In this document: positions 15,186-59,591 of the stretch, piece after piece | Layout of the letters: each line of letters begins with the position of its first letter | Numbering within the stretch: the first letter of the stretch is position 1 | Origin: Candidatus Magasanikiibacteriota bacterium | GTDB taxonomy: Bacteria > Patescibacteriota > Patescibacteriia > Magasanikbacterales > GWA2-37-8 | Length of the DNA stretch: 64,000 nt | NCBI GenBank assembly: GCA_943357105.1 | Contig: CALRGC010000001.1 | Location: 17,045-81,044, forward strand | Direction of reading: 5' to 3' | Program-made: the position numbers and the translations under genes | Notes under the pieces: generated by a model | Database searches by the model: none | What the model saw: only the letters and a program-made list of their open reading frames with translations | Told to the model about the DNA's origin: nothing

Positions 15186-15270
15186 TGGTGCCGATGGTGG
15201 GACTTGAACCCACAAACCCGAAGGCACATGATTTTGAGTCATGCATGTTTACCAATTTCATCACATCGGC
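15186..15270 (-). tRNA. tRNA-Leu (anticodon CAA), long variable arm, CCA encoded
   Basis: Cloverleaf: acceptor GCCGATG/CATCGGC; anticodon loop CTCAAAA; T-loop GGTTCAAGTCC. Confidence 0.8.
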
Positions 15271-19472: not shown

Positions 19473-19544
19473 GGCCTCATCGTCTAATGGTTAGGACAGC
19501 TCGCTTTCAATGAGCAAATACGAGTTCGATTCTCGTTGGGGCTA
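19473..19544 (+). tRNA. tRNA-Glu (anticodon UUC)
   Basis: Positions fit the standard cloverleaf numbering; anticodon loop CTTTCAA; T-loop TTCGATT; two G-U pairs in the acceptor stem. Confidence 0.75.
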
Positions 19545-28424: not shown

Positions 28425-28466
28425 AAAAACACCTCGGAAAAAATTTCGAGGTGTTTTTAATTTTCT
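28425..28466. terminator. bidirectional terminator between the convergent doxX-like and ABC-F genes
   Basis: acacctcg...cgaggtgt stem between A- and T-tracts. Confidence 0.65.
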
Positions 28467-34920: not shown

Positions 34921-34997
34921 GTCAGGGTAGCTCAGCTGGTTAGAGCACGGCATTCATAACGCCGAGGTCGGGAGTTCGATTCTCCCCTCTGACACCA
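34921..34997 (+). tRNA. tRNA with CAU anticodon (elongator Met or Ile2-lysidine type)
   Basis: Cloverleaf with G1-C72; anticodon loop TTCATAA; T-loop TTCGATT; CCA encoded. Confidence 0.75.
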
Positions 34998-35078: not shown

Positions 35079-35113
35079 AAAAACAAAAAAACCGTCGCAA
35101 GACGGTTTTTTTG
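35079..35113. terminator. bidirectional terminator (accgtc-gcaa-gacggt) between tRNA and hup
   Basis: A-tract / stem / T-tract. Confidence 0.7.
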
Positions 35114-35123
35114 TTTAATTTTT

Positions 35124-35599: not shown

Positions 35600-37126
35600 T
35601 TAGCGAGCGTATTCGATGATACGAGATTCGCGAATAACATTGATGCGAATTTCACCAGGGTATTGTAAATCTTCCTCCACTTTGTGAGCGATATCTTTGG
35701 CCAACTGATAGGCGCCGTAGTCATCAATTTCATTTGGTTTGACAAACACACGCACTTCACGACCAGCCTGGATAGCATAAACTTTGTCGATACCCGGGAA
35801 GGACATGGCGGTTTTTTCTAATTCTTCCAGACGAGCCACAAATTGCTCCACGCTGTCGCGACGAGCGCCAATGCGAGCGCCAGAGATAGCGTCAGCGGCT
35901 TTGGCAATACAAGCGTAGATGCTTTGGGGTTTGTCCAAATGGTGATCGCGAGCGGCTTGGCAGACATCATCATCAATATTGAATTTTTTCAAAATCGCGT
36001 AGCCCACTTCCGGATGCGAACCTTGAGTTTCTTGATCCACGGCTTTTCCAATATCGTGGAAGAAGCCGGCCTTTTTGGCTTTGGATTGATCCAGACCTAA
36101 TTCAGCGGCCATGATACCGGCGAGATAACCAGTTTCCATCGAATGATTCATAATATTTTGGCCATAGCTGGTGCGATATTTCAGACGACCAACAATGCTG
36201 ACCAATTTTGGATCAATACCCACGATGTTCATTTTGTATAGAGCTTCTTCACCGGCCTTTTTGATCGCCAAAGCTAAATCTTGTTTGGCTTTTTCGACAA
36301 ACTCTTCGATACGAGCCGGCTGAATGCGGCCGTCGGCCATTAATTTTTCCAAAGCCAAACGAGCGACTTCGCGACGAATTGGGGAGAAACAAGAAATAAT
36401 AATAGATTCTGGAGTGTCATCAATTACAATTTCACAACCAGTAAGTTTTTCGATAGTTTTAATGTTGCGGCCTTCTTTACCGATGATGCGGCCTTTCATC
36501 TCTTCGCTTGGCAGATGAATTACCGAACCGGTAGTTTCAGCGGAATGAGAAGAAGCGGTGCGCTGGATCGCTTCGGTCATGAGGTTGCGAGCTTTTTCTT
36601 CGTAATGTTCAGTGGCTTCTTTTTCTAATTTAGAAATACGAGCGTAGAGATCAATTTTACTTTCTTCCTCCACAATAGCGAGCAATTCCAATTTGGCTTC
36701 TTCTCTGGTGAGACCGGCCAATTCCGTCAATTTTTCGGTCTGCTGAACTTTGAGGTTTTCTACCTCTTGTTTAATGGCCTTTACTTTCTCTACCTTTTCT
36801 TGAAGTTTATTTTGACTGTCTTGAAACTCTAACAATTTTTGATCAAACATCGTTTCACGTTTTTCCAAACGCTCTTGGGCGTTGTGGGCTTCGGCGCGAA
36901 TCTGTTTTTCTTCGGCCTTGGCTTCGTCGATAATTTTTTGGGCTTTTTCTTTACCTTCGATGACCAATTCCTGTTGTTTGGTCTTGGCCTCGGTAATCAT
37001 TTTTTCCGCTTTGGCCTCGATGGAGTTGGCCTGGGCCTGGGCGAATTTTTTGCGTAAAAAATATCCGCAGAAGCCGCCAACTATCGTCGCCACTAGGGCC
37101 ACGGCCAGCATAATTAATGAATTCAT
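35600..37126 (-). CDS. rny: ribonuclease Y
   Basis: N-terminal TM, coiled coil, KH and HD domains (FFHDIGKA). Confidence 0.9.
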   Translation of the reverse strand: MNSLIMLAVALVATIVGGFCGYFLRKKFAQAQANSIEAKAEKMITEAKTKQQELVIEGKEKAQKIIDEAKAEEKQIRAEAHNAQERLEKRETMFDQKLLEFQDSQNKLQEKVEKVKAIKQEVENLKVQQTEKLTELAGLTREEAKLELLAIVEEESKIDLYARISKLEKEATEHYEEKARNLMTEAIQRTASSHSAETTGSVIHLPSEEMKGRIIGKEGRNIKTIEKLTGCEIVIDDTPESIIISCFSPIRREVARLALEKLMADGRIQPARIEEFVEKAKQDLALAIKKAGEEALYKMNIVGIDPKLVSIVGRLKYRTSYGQNIMNHSMETGYLAGIMAAELGLDQSKAKKAGFFHDIGKAVDQETQGSHPEVGYAILKKFNIDDDVCQAARDHHLDKPQSIYACIAKAADAISGARIGARRDSVEQFVARLEELEKTAMSFPGIDKVYAIQAGREVRVFVKPNEIDDYGAYQLAKDIAHKVEEDLQYPGEIRINVIRESRIIEYAR

Positions 37127-37388
37127 ATATAAAAAATCTTTCAGAGTGAACTGAAAGACAGCATTTTGCCACTACTTGGCAAAAAAGGAAGAATTTTTGG
37201 TGGAAGATTACAAATTACTCGTTGGCACGAGTAGCACTTAAGTGAGGAAGGAAAAAGTCGATTTTGAAGCGATATTTTCGGTCAATCCAGCCGATAAAAT
37301 GTTGAAATTTGTAGTCATCTTAGCCAAATTTTATTATTTCTCCCAAACGCTGTTTTTGCAGTCAGCTCAGTTGTTATTTAAGTGCTTT

Positions 37389-37417
37389 TATAATAGCACA
37401 AATTGGGTAAAATGTCA
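37389..37417 (-). promoter_or_regulatory. consensus promoter TTGACA-17-TATTAT about 290 nt upstream of rny (long structured leader)
   Basis: Reverse complement reads ttgacattttacccaatttgtgctattat. Confidence 0.45.
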
Positions 37418-37418
37418 A

Positions 37419-38099
37419 TCAACCTTTATTTAAAGGTTTTAATTCGATAGCATCTTCAATTTTGTATTCACCGATTTTGGTGCGGCGCAAAGCCGAGCAA
37501 TAGGCGCCAATCCCAAGTTGTTCTCCAATATCATTGGCTAGAGTGCGAATATATGTGCCGGCTGAGCAACTAACTTCTATGATGAGCTCCGGATAAGAGT
37601 AACTTAAAAATTTAATATCAAAAATTGTAATTCTATTTGGTTGGCGCTTAACCTCTTTGCCTTTGCGCGCCAGTTTATAGAGCCGCTGGCCGTTTATTTT
37701 TTTGGCGGAAAACATCGGCGGGAGTTGGTCTTGTTCGCCAATAAAATTTTGTAATACTTTTTTTATATCTTCTAGATCTACTGGTTTGGCATCCGGATAT
37801 TGCATGATAGTGCCGGTGCTATCAAAGGTGTCAGAAGTAGTCCCTAGGCGTAGGGTGGCAGCATATGTTTTTGGCAGATGCGCAAATTCATCTATTTTTT
37901 TGGTATTCTCGCGCCCAATAGCCACAATCAGTAGTCCGGTAGCAAATGGGTCCAGCGTGCCGGTGTGGCCAACTTTTATTTTTTTATTGCCGGTAGCGTA
38001 GCGTAGCTCGGAGCGAATAAAATTCACGGCGTCAAAACTGGTCCAGGTGGCTGGTTTGTCTATGAGCACTAAATCTTTGTTTAAAAATTGACTATTCAT
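37419..38099 (-). CDS. truB: tRNA pseudouridine(55) synthase TruB
   Basis: TruB family (catalytic GHTGTLDPFATGLL). Confidence 0.9.
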   Translation of the reverse strand: MNSQFLNKDLVLIDKPATWTSFDAVNFIRSELRYATGNKKIKVGHTGTLDPFATGLLIVAIGRENTKKIDEFAHLPKTYAATLRLGTTSDTFDSTGTIMQYPDAKPVDLEDIKKVLQNFIGEQDQLPPMFSAKKINGQRLYKLARKGKEVKRQPNRITIFDIKFLSYSYPELIIEVSCSAGTYIRTLANDIGEQLGIGAYCSALRRTKIGEYKIEDAIELKPLNKG

Positions 38100-38104
38100 T
38101 TAAT

Positions 38105-38385
38105 TTGGAAAGGAGGTTGGGACGGCGTGCACGGGAGGAGGGTGCGCACGCCGTCCCTTTGTCAGTTGTCTCGCTGTTGGACGGTCGACGATCCGCGGGG
38201 AGGAGGGTGGGGACGGATCGTGACATGAATTGCACTTTGCGCTCTTTTGTTCCACCGCACGGGCAGAATAGAGGCCAAAGTAGGCTCGGTGGAAGATTGC
38301 AGCAAGCCTGAAACAACATAACATCATATAAATTAGCCTTTATTTTTAGAAAAGTCAACTCTGGGTCAAAGTTTGACTTTTTCAT
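38105..38385 (+). ncRNA. candidate structured element or sRNA: two GC-rich hairpins with near-identical GGGAGGAGGGTG loops, ending in an intrinsic terminator
   Basis: 12-bp stem gggacggcgtgc/gcacgccgtccc with loop acgggaggagggtgc; 8-bp stem acgatccg/cggatcgt with loop cggggaggagggtgggga; aagtcaa...ttgactt stem plus T-tract at 38353-38385. Confidence 0.3.
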
Positions 38386-38415
38386 AAATTTACATTATAA
38401 TAGCCCAATAATAAT

Positions 38416-40399
38416 ATGAATGTTAGTGAATTAGCTAGACAACTCCGAGTCCATCCTGCCAAGCTCCTGCAAATTTTGCCGGAGTTCGGTTTTGATATCG
38501 GCGCGCGCGCCGTAAAAATCGATGATCGGGTGGCGGCGCAAATTCAGCGCGATTGGCGTCGAATAAAATTTGTGCTCGAGGACAGAGAACTAAAAGCCAA
38601 AGAAAAAGAAAAAGAGTTGGAACGTCAAATGCGCAAAGAAAGTGGTGTGGTGGTGGAGATTCCCAATGTTTTGACGGTGCGTGAACTGTCCGATTTGCTC
38701 AATATGCCGATCAATAAGTTGATTTTGGAATTGATGAAAAATGGTATCTTGGCTACTCAAAATGAAAAGATTGATCGGGACTCCGCTTCTTTAATTGCTC
38801 AAGAACTTGGTTTTACTACTTCGGTAAAAAATGAAAATCAAGTCGTGCCAGAAGATACTACTCACTTGGAAAATTTAGAAAAAATATTATCCAGCAGTGC
38901 CGATACCGCTCGCCCGCCAGTAGTAGTGGTGATGGGCCATGTAGATCATGGTAAAACCAAATTATTGGATTCGATTCGTAGTGCCAATGTGATGGCTAGT
39001 GAAGCCGGTGGTATTACTCAGCATATTGGCGCGTACCAAGTAATTTGGAATAATCCAAAAACCAAAGAAAAATCTCCACTTACTTTTATTGATACTCCAG
39101 GCCACGAAGCTTTTACCGTGATGCGTAGCCGTGGCGCCAAGGTGGCCGATATCGCGATTCTCGTAGTTGCCGCTGATGATGGTGTGAAACCTCAAACTGT
39201 AGAAGCGATCAATATTATTAAGGCTGCCAAATTACCGGTAGTCGTAGCCATAAACAAAATTGATAAACCAGGTGCTGACGTGCAGAAAGCCAAAAGTGAA
39301 TTATCAACACATAATTTAATTCCCGATGATTGGGGTGGCGATGTGCCGATGGTAGAAATTTCCGCTAAAGAAAATTTGAATATTGATAAATTGCTCGATA
39401 CTATTTTATTGGTGGCGGAATTAAATGCTGTGACTATTAAAGCCGATGCTACTCGTGCCGCCGCCGGTACCGTAATCGAAGCCCATGTTGACAAAGGCCA
39501 AGGCCCAGTGGCGACTGTATTGGTGCAAACCGGTACTCTGAAAGTAAATGATCCGCTTGTAGTGAACGGTGAAATTTACGGCAAAGTGCGCGCGATGAAA
39601 AATTATCGCGGTGATGATATGAAAACCGCCACTCCTAGTACGCCGGTGAGAATTCTTGGTTTTAAATTAGCACCTCGCGTGGGAGATGTGCTGGATGTCG
39701 GTAGTGTTGATAGCGCGTCAGAAATTAATCTGAAAAATAAACGCGTACAAAATACCGGCGCCGAACAACGTCCGCTGGCCTCTACCGGTGACACCGAAGC
39801 GGATGAAGCGCGCAAAACTTTTAATATTGTTATCAAGACCGATGTGCTCGGATCGCTTGAAGCCATTACCGCCTCGCTCGAAAAAATGAAAAATGATGAA
39901 GTTAGTGTGAAAGTGGTTGGCAAAGGTTTGGGCCACGGGCGCGCAAGTTTTTGGTTTTAATGTTACCACCAGCTCCCTGGCTAATGAGATGATGGGCAAT
40001 ACCGGCGTCCAATTCAAACAGTTCAAAATTATCTATGACCTTTTTGATTATGTCAAAGAAGAGTTGGAAAAACTTTTGAATCCGGAATTAATTATCACCG
40101 AATTGGGTAATATCAAAATCATGGCTATCTTCCGCACGGAAAAAGGCCATATGATCGTCGGTGGTCGCGTGGAAATGGGCAAACTGCAAAAAGATTGCAA
40201 AGTGCGCGTGAAACGCAATAAAGAAATTATTGGTAAAGGCGCCCTGTCTCATCTGCAGACCGGTAAACAAGAAGTAAAAGAAATTCCTGAAGGCACGGAA
40301 TGCGGTGTACAGTTTGATGGTAAGCTGAGACTTGAAGTTGGGGATGTGCTCGAAGCGTATAAGGAAGAGAAGAAAGAAAAGAAATTGGTTTTGAGCTAA
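38416..40399 (+). pseudogene. infB: translation initiation factor IF-2 with the reading frame broken near 39925-39950 (roughly 29 nt missing)
   Basis: ORF 38416-39960 (G domain VVVMGHVDHGKT) and ORF 39917-40399 (IF-2 C-terminus AQVFGFNVTTSS) are in different frames. Confidence 0.8.
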
Positions 40400-45903: not shown

Positions 45904-46295
45904 GCGTTTACAGTGGATGATCGTCCCTGACCTAGTCAGGGGAGGAAAGTCCGAACACTTTCTTTGAAAAAAGAAAAAAGGCAGTGGGTAACACCCACCG
46001 GTTTGGCGGCAACGTCAAACAAGGGAAAGCGGCACAGAGACAATACTATCCCAGAGCAATTTGGGAGAAAGGTGAAAAGAATATGGAAGTTCTGACTCTA
46101 GAACAGAGCTACCATATACCGACCGTTGTGAGACGGTCTGGTGCCAAGCCCTGCCTGGGTGCAAGAGCAGCCTATGAGAGAGACATAGGAAAAGTTCGCT
46201 CGCTTGATTTTGGCAGTAATGCCAAAACTAGATAAATGATCGTCACGTCTTGCTAAACACAAGACGTACAGAATTCGGCTTATAACTGTAAACTC
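45904..46295 (+). ncRNA. rnpB: RNase P RNA (bacterial type)
   Basis: P4 halves gaggaaagtccgaac and acagaattcggcttat; P1 pairing gtttacagt/actgtaaac; gggtaacaccc element; terminator follows. Confidence 0.8.
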
Positions 46296-46300
46296 ATCAA

Positions 46301-49330: not shown

Positions 49331-49414
49331 GTTTGTATTGTGGGCGAGAGAGGACTCGAACCTCCACAGGATTGCTCCCACAGGCTTCTGAGACCTGCGC
49401 GTCTACCAATTCCG
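49331..49414 (-). tRNA. tRNA-Leu (anticodon CAG), long variable arm
   Basis: Acceptor GGGTGAG/CTCGCCC; anticodon loop CTCAGAA; T-loop GGTTCGAGTCC. Confidence 0.8.
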
Positions 49415-49428
49415 CCACTCACCCGAAT

Positions 49429-59517: not shown

Positions 59518-59591
59518 TGCTCCCAGATGGACTTGAACCATCGACCACCAAATTATAAGTCTGGTGCTCTAACCAGCTGAGCTATGGGAGC
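59518..59591 (-). tRNA. tRNA-Ile with UAU anticodon (AUA decoder)
   Basis: Acceptor GCTCCCA/TGGGAGC; anticodon loop CTTATAA; Ile-type D and T arms. Confidence 0.7.

Follow-up and report, generated by a model that had tools for sequence, protein, structure and literature searches.

A putative structured leader RNA with C-rich loops upstream of truB in a Magasanikbacteria subclade

We analyzed a 64,000-nucleotide (nt) stretch of a Candidatus Magasanikiibacteriota contig (CALRGC010000001.1; hereafter, the window) to characterize a GC-rich element between infB and truB, the gene for tRNA pseudouridine-55 synthase (37419-38099, minus strand; Pfam TruB_N, E = 2.5e-51). Candidatus Magasanikbacteria, to which the TruB relatives of the window also assign its source, are tiny, uncultured members of the Candidate Phyla Radiation (CPR)/Patescibacteria. 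The element is very likely a structured RNA in the sense orientation of truB, occupying 38100-38325 of the minus strand (∼225 nt, from the predicted transcription start to the base before the truB ATG), and it has homologues in four other lineages. We regard as probable the fuller statement that this lineage-restricted RNA forms the 5′ leader of truB and uses C-rich loops as its working surface. Because matching base-pair changes occur in relatives, we infer that it is a functional, previously undescribed RNA of a Magasanikbacteria subclade.

Fold, strand, and covariation of the truB leader

A preliminary description of this region had reported two strong hairpins with stems of 12 and 8 bp, a duplicated loop sequence, and a GC content that contrasts with the surroundings, and these features were borne out. 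The inverted repeats at 38119-38130/38146-38157 (12 bp) and 38188-38195/38214-38221 (8 bp) match at 100%, and the 12-nt sequence GGGAGGAGGGTG, as read on the plus strand, is exact in both hairpin loops (38133-38144 and 38198-38209). These are its only two copies in the window, where dinucleotide shuffles give an expectation of 0.01. The GC content is 60% at 38105-38300 versus 41.6% for the whole window. The ggtggaag...gcagcaagcc segment noted beside the hairpins also exists and supplies an arm region of another helix, P2.

The strand and the reading of the loops had to be revised. The description had implied a plus-strand RNA with purine-rich loops, whose GGAGG repeats might act as a Shine-Dalgarno (SD)-like sponge. 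The plus-strand fold of 38100-38390 barely beats shuffled sequences (z = −1.82), compared to z = −7.79 for the minus strand of the region and z = −7.30 for the leader alone, which has a minimum free energy of −85.5 kcal/mol. Sense folds of the window and homologues gave z scores of −7.30, −7.37, and −6.60, and the antisense folds gave −1.82 (a slightly longer window segment), −4.61, and −4.44. As transcribed from the minus strand, the loops read CCUCCUCCC, which is pyrimidine rich and anti-SD-like.

Independent folds of the window and of two relatives (loci L031 and L035) produced one common architecture. MAFFT alignments were unreliable around the deletion of one hairpin (hairpin B) and were replaced by a manual alignment of five sequences (the window, L031, L035, L060, and L062), which we checked against the source sequences and passed through the aligner with N padding to keep the columns. 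This alignment holds 65 pairs and 282 cells, of which 270 (95.7%) are paired in the sense orientation versus 256 in the antisense orientation. There are 19 G-U cells in the sense reading versus 5 in the antisense reading, and the 19 become A-C mismatches on the plus strand. Twelve pairs change on both sides, compared to 4.7 ± 1.5 in shuffles (0 of 500 reached 12) and to 1 or 2 in slid controls, where the partner columns of the pairs were shifted. Between lineages, identity is 74 to 98% in paired columns, 52 to 64% at synonymous truB sites, and 43 to 75% in unpaired leader columns.

The leader opens with helix P1 (helix 1), supported by both the fold and the alignment, in which UGUUAUGUUGUUUC (38310-38323, minus strand) pairs with GAGACAACUGACA (38160-38172, minus strand). 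P1 has 14 pairs, with 95% of cells paired and two pairs changed on both sides. It holds the 5′-proximal AUG and joins the transcript 5′ end to a segment ∼150 nt downstream, just before hairpin A, and so closes a multibranch domain. Within this domain lies P2 (helix 2; 38282-38309, minus strand), a hairpin of the form AGGCUUG...CGAGCCU that is again supported by fold and alignment; it is 97% paired, and its G-C to G-U and A-U to G-U changes are compatible with the sense strand only. P3 (helices 3 to 5; 38234-38281, minus strand) is a composite hairpin with outer ACUUUG/CAAAGU, middle CUCU/AGAG, and inner UUCUGCC/GGUGGAA pairings and a 5-nt loop, and three pairs of its inner helix changed on both sides. 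Hairpin B (helix 6; 38183-38225, minus strand) carries the loop CCCCACCCUCCUCCCC, with CCUCCUCCC at 38198-38206, inside the P1-closed multiloop and is missing from the L035 and L060 versions. The smallest version of the element is 160 nt.

Directly 3′ of P1 is hairpin A (helix 7; 38119-38157, minus strand), with a 14-bp GC-rich stem (14 to 15 bp among homologues), the loop ACCCUCCUCCC, and CCUCCUCCC at 38133-38141. All of its cells (100%) are paired, and five pairs changed on both sides. The sequence after hairpin A, AACCUCCUUUCC, contains no U-tract, and the truB ATG comes 19 nt later. No AUG-sequestering helix or terminator was predicted in the folds, and since hairpin A has no U-tract and leaves the AUG uncovered, it is neither a canonical terminator nor a sequestering hairpin. 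The unpaired pyrimidine-rich tail AACCUCCUUUCCAAAUUAA (38100-38118, minus strand) runs up to the truB AUG. A C/U-rich tract lies just 5′ of the AUG in all five homologues, as CCUUUCC in four and as CCUUCCCC in L060.

The covariation, frame-breaking indels, and stem conservation above the synonymous-site level support the reading of the element as a structured noncoding RNA and not as a decayed fragment of a high-GC gene, a possibility that the preliminary description had raised. Its proposal of a structured RNA therefore holds up, and its placement of that RNA on the plus strand and with infB does not. The window-L031 alignment contains indels of 1, 2, and 4 nt, and across the homologues we found no conserved open reading frame (ORF), with no frame staying open. 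The ORF from the 5′ AUG is 75 amino acids (aa) long in the window and 87 aa long in L031; as read from the sequences, it stops after 3, 3, and 2 codons in L035, L060, and L062, respectively. The three ORFs overlapping the element had no Pfam match, and the 75-aa frame had no match among 5.8 billion proteins.

Gene calling fared poorly at this leader. The TruB call P0005 (L035, 185-1012; 275 aa) swallowed the GC-rich leader only by reading TGA as a sense codon, and its gene does not translate to its protein under table 11; the incorrect code is what carried the call across the leader. Extended TruB calls at other loci (P0063, P0080, and P0099) likewise take in unrelated upstream sequence. The reassignment of the leader corrects this annotation trap.

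Divergent promoters and distribution among relatives

The predicted truB promoter consists of a −35 consensus match, TTGACT (38353-38358, minus strand; AGTCAA on the plus strand), and a −10 sequence, TAATTT (38330-38335, minus strand), at 17-nt spacing, which puts the predicted transcription start at ∼38325-38322. The TTGACT-17-TA(A/T/C)TTT promoter is kept in L031, L032, L035, L060, and L062, with TATTTT, TACTTT, or TAATTT as the −10 sequence in the same place. On the plus strand, a promoter scan found the infB promoter TTGACT-17-TATAAT at 38373-38401 (11/12 matches), whose −35 hexamer at 38373-38378 leaves a leader of ∼7 nt before the infB ATG at 38416. The first infB ORF (38416-39960, plus strand) and truB are thus divergently oriented around the GC-rich element. 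The preliminary description had correctly placed the element between the two genes, and its further reading of the element as upstream of infB failed: because the genes diverge, the element is not upstream of infB in transcripts from the infB promoter and belongs to the truB side.

The intrinsic terminator that had been proposed at 38353-38385 was rejected. The terminator scan made no call there, and the arms of the supposed hairpin, which are 82% complementary, AT-rich, and 14 nt apart, are AGTCAA (38353-38358) and TTGACT (38373-38378), the two divergent −35 hexamers. The AAAGTCAA-N14-TTGACTTT arrangement is kept in relatives both with and without the element, and in relatives the intervening bases show neither conservation nor complementarity. 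With two divergent −35 boxes in place of a terminator, nothing at this site delimits a ∼280-nt transcript from the plus strand. The symmetric AAAGTCAA-N14-TTGACTTT arrangement itself (38351-38380 in the window; conserved in L031, L032, L035, L060, and L062) could be simply two −35 boxes or an operator for a dimeric regulator of truB and infB.

Likely terminators elsewhere in the window carry long U-tracts (e.g., at 35081-35116 and 28425-28458). Hairpin A, unlike these, has none, and on this basis we infer that transcription from the truB promoter reads through into truB.

The divergent infB-truB arrangement is conserved among relatives, and an identical copy of the window locus is present in an ENA assembly (L029). 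The preliminary description had suggested looking for homologous elements upstream of infB in relatives; homologues exist in four other lineages, and they lie upstream of truB rather than in the infB transcript. Counting the window, the element is found in five lineages and is absent from most close relatives, whose truB looks leaderless. The carriers are L031 (TruB 84% identical to that of the window; infB-truB spacer of 311 nt), L035 (84%; ∼250 nt, read from the sequence), L059 to L061 (75%; 248 nt), and L062/L063 (77%; 297 nt). The element is absent from L030 (84%; 64 nt), L032 (82%; 92 nt), L033/L034 (79%; 91 nt), L064 to L066 (74%; at most 91 nt), and L001 and L002 (72% and 66%, respectively, each with a short spacer of ∼100 nt, read from the sequence). 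In a neighbor-joining tree of TruB, the carriers fall into one clade with the noncarrier L033 nested inside, which suggests a single gain of the element followed by at least one loss.

In L032, which lacks the element, the conserved truB promoter is followed by the ATG after 6 nt, and the truB mRNA of this relative is predicted to be leaderless. Carriers have the same promoter, then an AUG opening P1 after 4 to 6 nt, then the element, and then the real truB ATG. Because the carrier AUG sits where the L032 start codon sits, the element appears to have been inserted into an ancestrally leaderless truB, immediately after its start codon. The opening AUG lies 4 to 6 nt past the −10 sequence in the window (38323-38327) and likewise in L031, L035, L060, and L062. 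In the window, the ORF from this AUG spans the whole leader, and its UAA stop abuts the truB AUG (UAAAUG). This junction is not conserved; in the other lineages, the ORF either closes after 2 or 3 codons or passes the truB AUG in a different frame.

The GC-rich or structured truB upstream regions of the more distant Magasanikbacteria L036, L037, and L038 were considered as homologues and proved unrelated. Upstream of its truB, L038 (1490-1760; also L039 and L040) carries a GC-rich insert of ∼300 nt that is unrelated to the element. On the opposite strand, this insert encodes a cysteine-rich ORF of 59 aa (1546-1725) with GGAGGAG before it and a hairpin after it; the public TruB call there (336 aa) is wrongly extended through the insert. 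L036 (1580-1645) and L037 (1510-1575) have a different, short hairpin-rich stretch just before truB, with GGGAUC...GAUCCC and CCACC...GGUGG. In that lineage, a methyltransferase gene rather than infB lies upstream, and the hairpin stretch has been absorbed into extended TruB calls.

Two neighboring genes of the window deserve mention. A separate near-consensus promoter at 37418-37390 (TTGACA-17-TATTAT with an upstream TG) precedes the rny gene for RNase Y (35600-37126, minus strand). The rny leader of ∼260 nt (37127-37418, minus strand) contains the C/U-rich tracts UUCCUUCCUC, CUUCCACC, and UUCUUCCUUUUUU and is a second long leader next to that of truB. The infB gene (38416-40399) is divided between two ORFs, of 514 and 160 aa, that overlap at 39917-39960. 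In a tblastn search with the 672-aa InfB of L031 (95% identical), residues 1 to 507 matched one frame and residues 518 to 672 matched another, placing the change of frame near 39930-39940. Either the assembly or sequencing introduced an error here or an essential gene carries a frameshift.

C-rich loops and similarities to known RNAs

The loops of the element keep a C-rich character while their sequences change. The hairpin B and hairpin A loops are CCCCACCCUCCUCCCC and ACCCUCCUCCC in the window, CCCCCCCUCCCGA and AUCCCCCGA in L031, and UUACACCUCCCCCGCUGA and AUUUCUUC in L062. L035 and L060, without hairpin B, have CAGGA-C8-UCCUG and CAGGA-C5-UCCUG, respectively, in hairpin A. The window 9-mer is therefore not kept among the homologue loops (CCCCCCCUCCC, AUCCCCCGA, C8-UCCUG, C5-UCCUG, ACACCUCCCCC, and AUUUCUUC). 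Even so, all five homologues retain CCUCC within a C run in one or more apical loops: it is in hairpin B in the window, L031, and L062 and in hairpin A in L035 and L060, and hairpin A of L062 has lost CCUCC. In both lineages that lost hairpin B, the C run is thus found in hairpin A, a pattern that suggests selection for a C-rich loop as such.

The preliminary description had proposed a search against Rfam, and no family reached its gathering score over the region. At that threshold, the whole window contained only RNase P RNA (bacterial class A; 45905-46298; 174 bits) and five tRNAs (15189-15270, 19473-19544, 34921-34994, 49341-49424, and 59518-59591). With the region searched at E ≤ 10, the best match was to ar14 on the minus strand (31.4 bits, E = 4e-4; gathering score, 58.8), followed by much weaker subthreshold minus-strand matches that included 6C (18.5 bits, E = 5.1; gathering score, 47) and CcsR1. 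L031, L035, L060, and L062 had no Rfam match at E ≤ 1. The ar14 match reflects the loop motif only, and the other subthreshold matches were likewise driven by it. A search of metagenome contigs with the hairpin A pattern GGACGGCGYGCGCA N8-30 GCRCGCCGTCC returned 18 matches, all in genomes of 58 to 78% GC and with unrelated loops, which is why we take them to be chance matches. Group I introns and retrons were also considered and set aside, given the lack of an Rfam match, a size down to 160 nt, and splice-site rules that do not fit the ATG context; in addition, no reverse transcriptase gene lies near for a retron.

The closest parallel in loop sequence is the cuckoo/ar14 family of alphaproteobacterial small RNAs (sRNAs) (RF02344; CcsR1 to CcsR4 and NfeR1), which has two to four hairpins with CCUCCUCCC in each loop, whose loops are proposed anti-SD seeds and whose published model has a hairpin linker of at most 10 nt and no multiloops (PMC4615179). 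The window shares with this family two GC-rich hairpins with exact CCUCCUCCC loops, an anti-SD-like motif that points to G-rich RNA as the pairing partner. The exact cuckoo loop CCTCCTCCC is present in the window copy only (minus strand, 38133-38141 and 38198-38206), and the motif is not conserved in the homologues. In contrast to the cuckoo model, the linker is 30 nt (38158-38187), hairpin B lies in the P1-closed multiloop, and an extra 5′ domain of ∼110 nt (P1 to P3) is present without a terminator. Moreover, the ar14 score stays under the gathering score, and the element sits in the 5′ untranslated region (UTR) of a CPR bacterium, whereas cuckoo RNAs are free-standing alphaproteobacterial sRNAs with a Rho-independent terminator. 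The element is best explained as an analogue of cuckoo by convergence on the motif and not as a family member.

The 6C (RF01066, Actinobacteria) and sX13 (Xanthomonas) RNAs likewise display C-rich loops on stable stems, and these loops are experimentally shown mRNA-binding sites that act without Hfq (PMC6486639, PMC3771888). The loops of L031, L035, and L060 are runs of 5 to 8 C and come near the 6C pattern. The 6C model score is nevertheless far from its gathering score, the host is not an actinobacterium, and 6C and sX13 are free-standing genes of ∼100 nt, whereas these loops form part of a longer leader predicted to extend into truB. G-rich ribosome-binding sites, which sX13 targets, appear to be almost lacking in this genome.

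Structured 5′ leaders acting on their own mRNA, whether riboswitch-like (aptamer plus platform) or stabilizing 5′ stem-loops, offer a third comparison. Like them, the element lies between promoter and start codon on the sense strand, has a P1-closed junction followed by a strong hairpin, sequesters the transcript 5′ end in a helix, and is conserved in structure by covariation. It differs from them in having no recognizable terminator or start-sequestering hairpin and no Rfam match, in that no known ligand class fits truB, and in its very narrow distribution and dispensability.

Candidate functions and implications

In the mechanism that we favor, the leader would run from the truB promoter (−35 at 38358-38353, −10 at 38335-38330) to the truB AUG at 38099. 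P1 would close the multibranch domain of P2, P3, and the optional hairpin B, to be followed by hairpin A, the C/U-rich tail, and the AUG. The RNA would be a stable module carried in the 5′ UTR, with P1 protecting the 5′ end and the exposed CCUCC-containing apical loops serving as the working surface. These loops may pair with G-rich RNA, as do those of 6C, sX13, and cuckoo sRNAs, either within the leader or after cleavage from it. By analogy with those RNAs, we tentatively put this forward as the most likely mechanism.

Several points weigh against this reading. The start site, the 3′ end, and the read-through all rest on consensus matches. The loops lack the base-for-base conservation that is typical of sRNA seed regions. 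The comparison covers five distinct related sequences from one narrow clade, and a structure-guided hand alignment inflates the pair statistics. The element is also dispensable, as relatives with 74 to 84% TruB identity live without it, one of them nested among the carriers. SD-like or G-rich motifs are almost absent upstream of the 56 long ORFs (≥120 aa) in the window, and in a duplex scan of both loops against both strands of the window, the only matches to stand out were self-antisense, with no outstanding target, so the obvious target class for an anti-SD-like loop appears to be missing. Many window genes have a TATAAT-like box ∼10 to 25 nt from the ATG, and these features suggest that translation in this Magasanikbacterium is widely initiated on leaderless or short-leader mRNAs, independently of SD sequences.

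Almost equally likely is a purely cis-acting role, in which folding of the leader would determine how stable the truB mRNA is or how it is translated without an SD sequence. The C-rich loops and tail would then be contact sites for the ribosome or for a protein, possibly one that binds poly(C) or a mimic of the 16S 3′ end. Rather unlikely, in our view, is an independent trans-acting sRNA of the cuckoo/ar14/6C type that starts at the same promoter, ends at hairpin A, and blocks G-rich or SD sites, leaving truB to be expressed by read-through only or from another start. The two window hairpins with exact CCUCCUCCC loops, the minus-strand ar14 match with its weaker 6C and CcsR1 companions, and an established mechanism for such loops (PMC4615179, PMC6486639, PMC3771888) favor it. 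Yet AACCUCCUUUCC after hairpin A lacks the U-tract of this genome's terminators, no other truB promoter lies between hairpin A and the ATG (15 to 22 nt apart), the ar14 score is subthreshold with the four homologues unmatched, the genome is nearly free of SD motifs, and the hairpins are 30 nt apart with hairpin B inside a multiloop. A cis-regulatory sensor, in which the P1-closed junction binds a ligand or protein and hairpin A is the expression platform, appears improbable. Candidates for the sensed factor would be TruB itself or a factor recognizing the 16S rRNA 3′ end, which the hairpin-plus-ACCUCCUUUC tail resembles. The order of P1-closed multistem junction, strong hairpin, and start codon agrees with such a sensor, as does the window tail ACCUCCUUUC with its presumed likeness to the 16S rRNA 3′ end, and CCGUCC at 38176-38181 could pair with GGACGG in the hairpin A 5′ arm as an alternative structure. 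Against this, hairpin A is no terminator and leaves the AUG uncovered, L035 and L060 have lost both hairpin B and the junction segment, the tail CCUCC core is not conserved (UCCCC in L031, CUUCC in L035), and a very narrow, patchy distribution is unusual for a riboswitch. The CCGUCC/GGACGG pairing was rejected as an antiterminator-like switch because it is out of register in L062 and absent from L035 and L060. A T-arm mimic for TruB autoregulation was likewise rejected: among the loops examined visually, none showed a T-loop-like motif (UUCRA in a 7-nt loop), an argument against mimicry of the TruB substrate.

A further reading, which we offer as a long shot, holds that the module was inserted exactly after the 5′-terminal AUG of a leaderless truB and, mimicking the 16S 3′ end or acting as a poly(C) decoy, binds a ribosome-biogenesis or RNA decay factor. 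The vestigial AUG would be retained, buried in P1, and the CCUCC loops and window ACCUCCUUUC tail would be anti-SD-like surfaces; candidate binders are a KH-domain protein such as Era or the neighboring RNase Y. Very unlikely is a functionless insertion at the truB start, whether a decaying high-GC gene fragment or a selfish element resembling a miniature inverted-repeat transposable element. The patchy occurrence among close relatives, the GC content foreign to the genome, an apparent insertion site right at the ancestral start codon, and variable modules, with hairpin B missing in two lineages, would fit. The stems, conserved at 74 to 98% against 52 to 64% for synonymous sites and with 12 compensatory pairs, do not, and no frame has protein homology. 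Neither blastn-short nor nhmmer found a second copy in the window, phage and plasmid collections contained nothing resembling the element by blastn, and the metagenome matches to the hairpin A pattern were only unrelated high-GC sequences. The least credible reading is the ∼280-nt plus-strand RNA with GGAGG-rich loops, as an SD-like sponge or sRNA, and a terminator at 38353-38385. Hairpins form on that strand too, and a hairpin with a T-rich stretch after it is present at 38342-38389, but the plus-strand fold barely beats shuffled sequences, the promoter scan found no plus-strand promoter-like site upstream of 38373, the sense G-U cells become mismatches, and the arms of the uncalled terminator are −35 hexamers that are conserved without the element.

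The element is real, previously undescribed, and narrowly distributed, and no Rfam family covers it. To our knowledge, essentially no regulatory RNAs are known for CPR/Patescibacteria, which are hard to culture, and a literature search for them found none. The truB locus now provides a concrete, covariation-supported RNA with a clear history of gain and loss among close relatives, in which a probably leaderless gene became leadered through the insertion of a folded RNA. It also appears to represent a cuckoo/6C-type C-rich loop design that arose independently in a very distant lineage. The presence of CCUCC loops in a lineage that apparently initiates mostly without SD pairing raises the question of what these loops pair with. 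If the mimic or decoy reading were true, the CPR would thereby gain its first described class of regulatory RNA.

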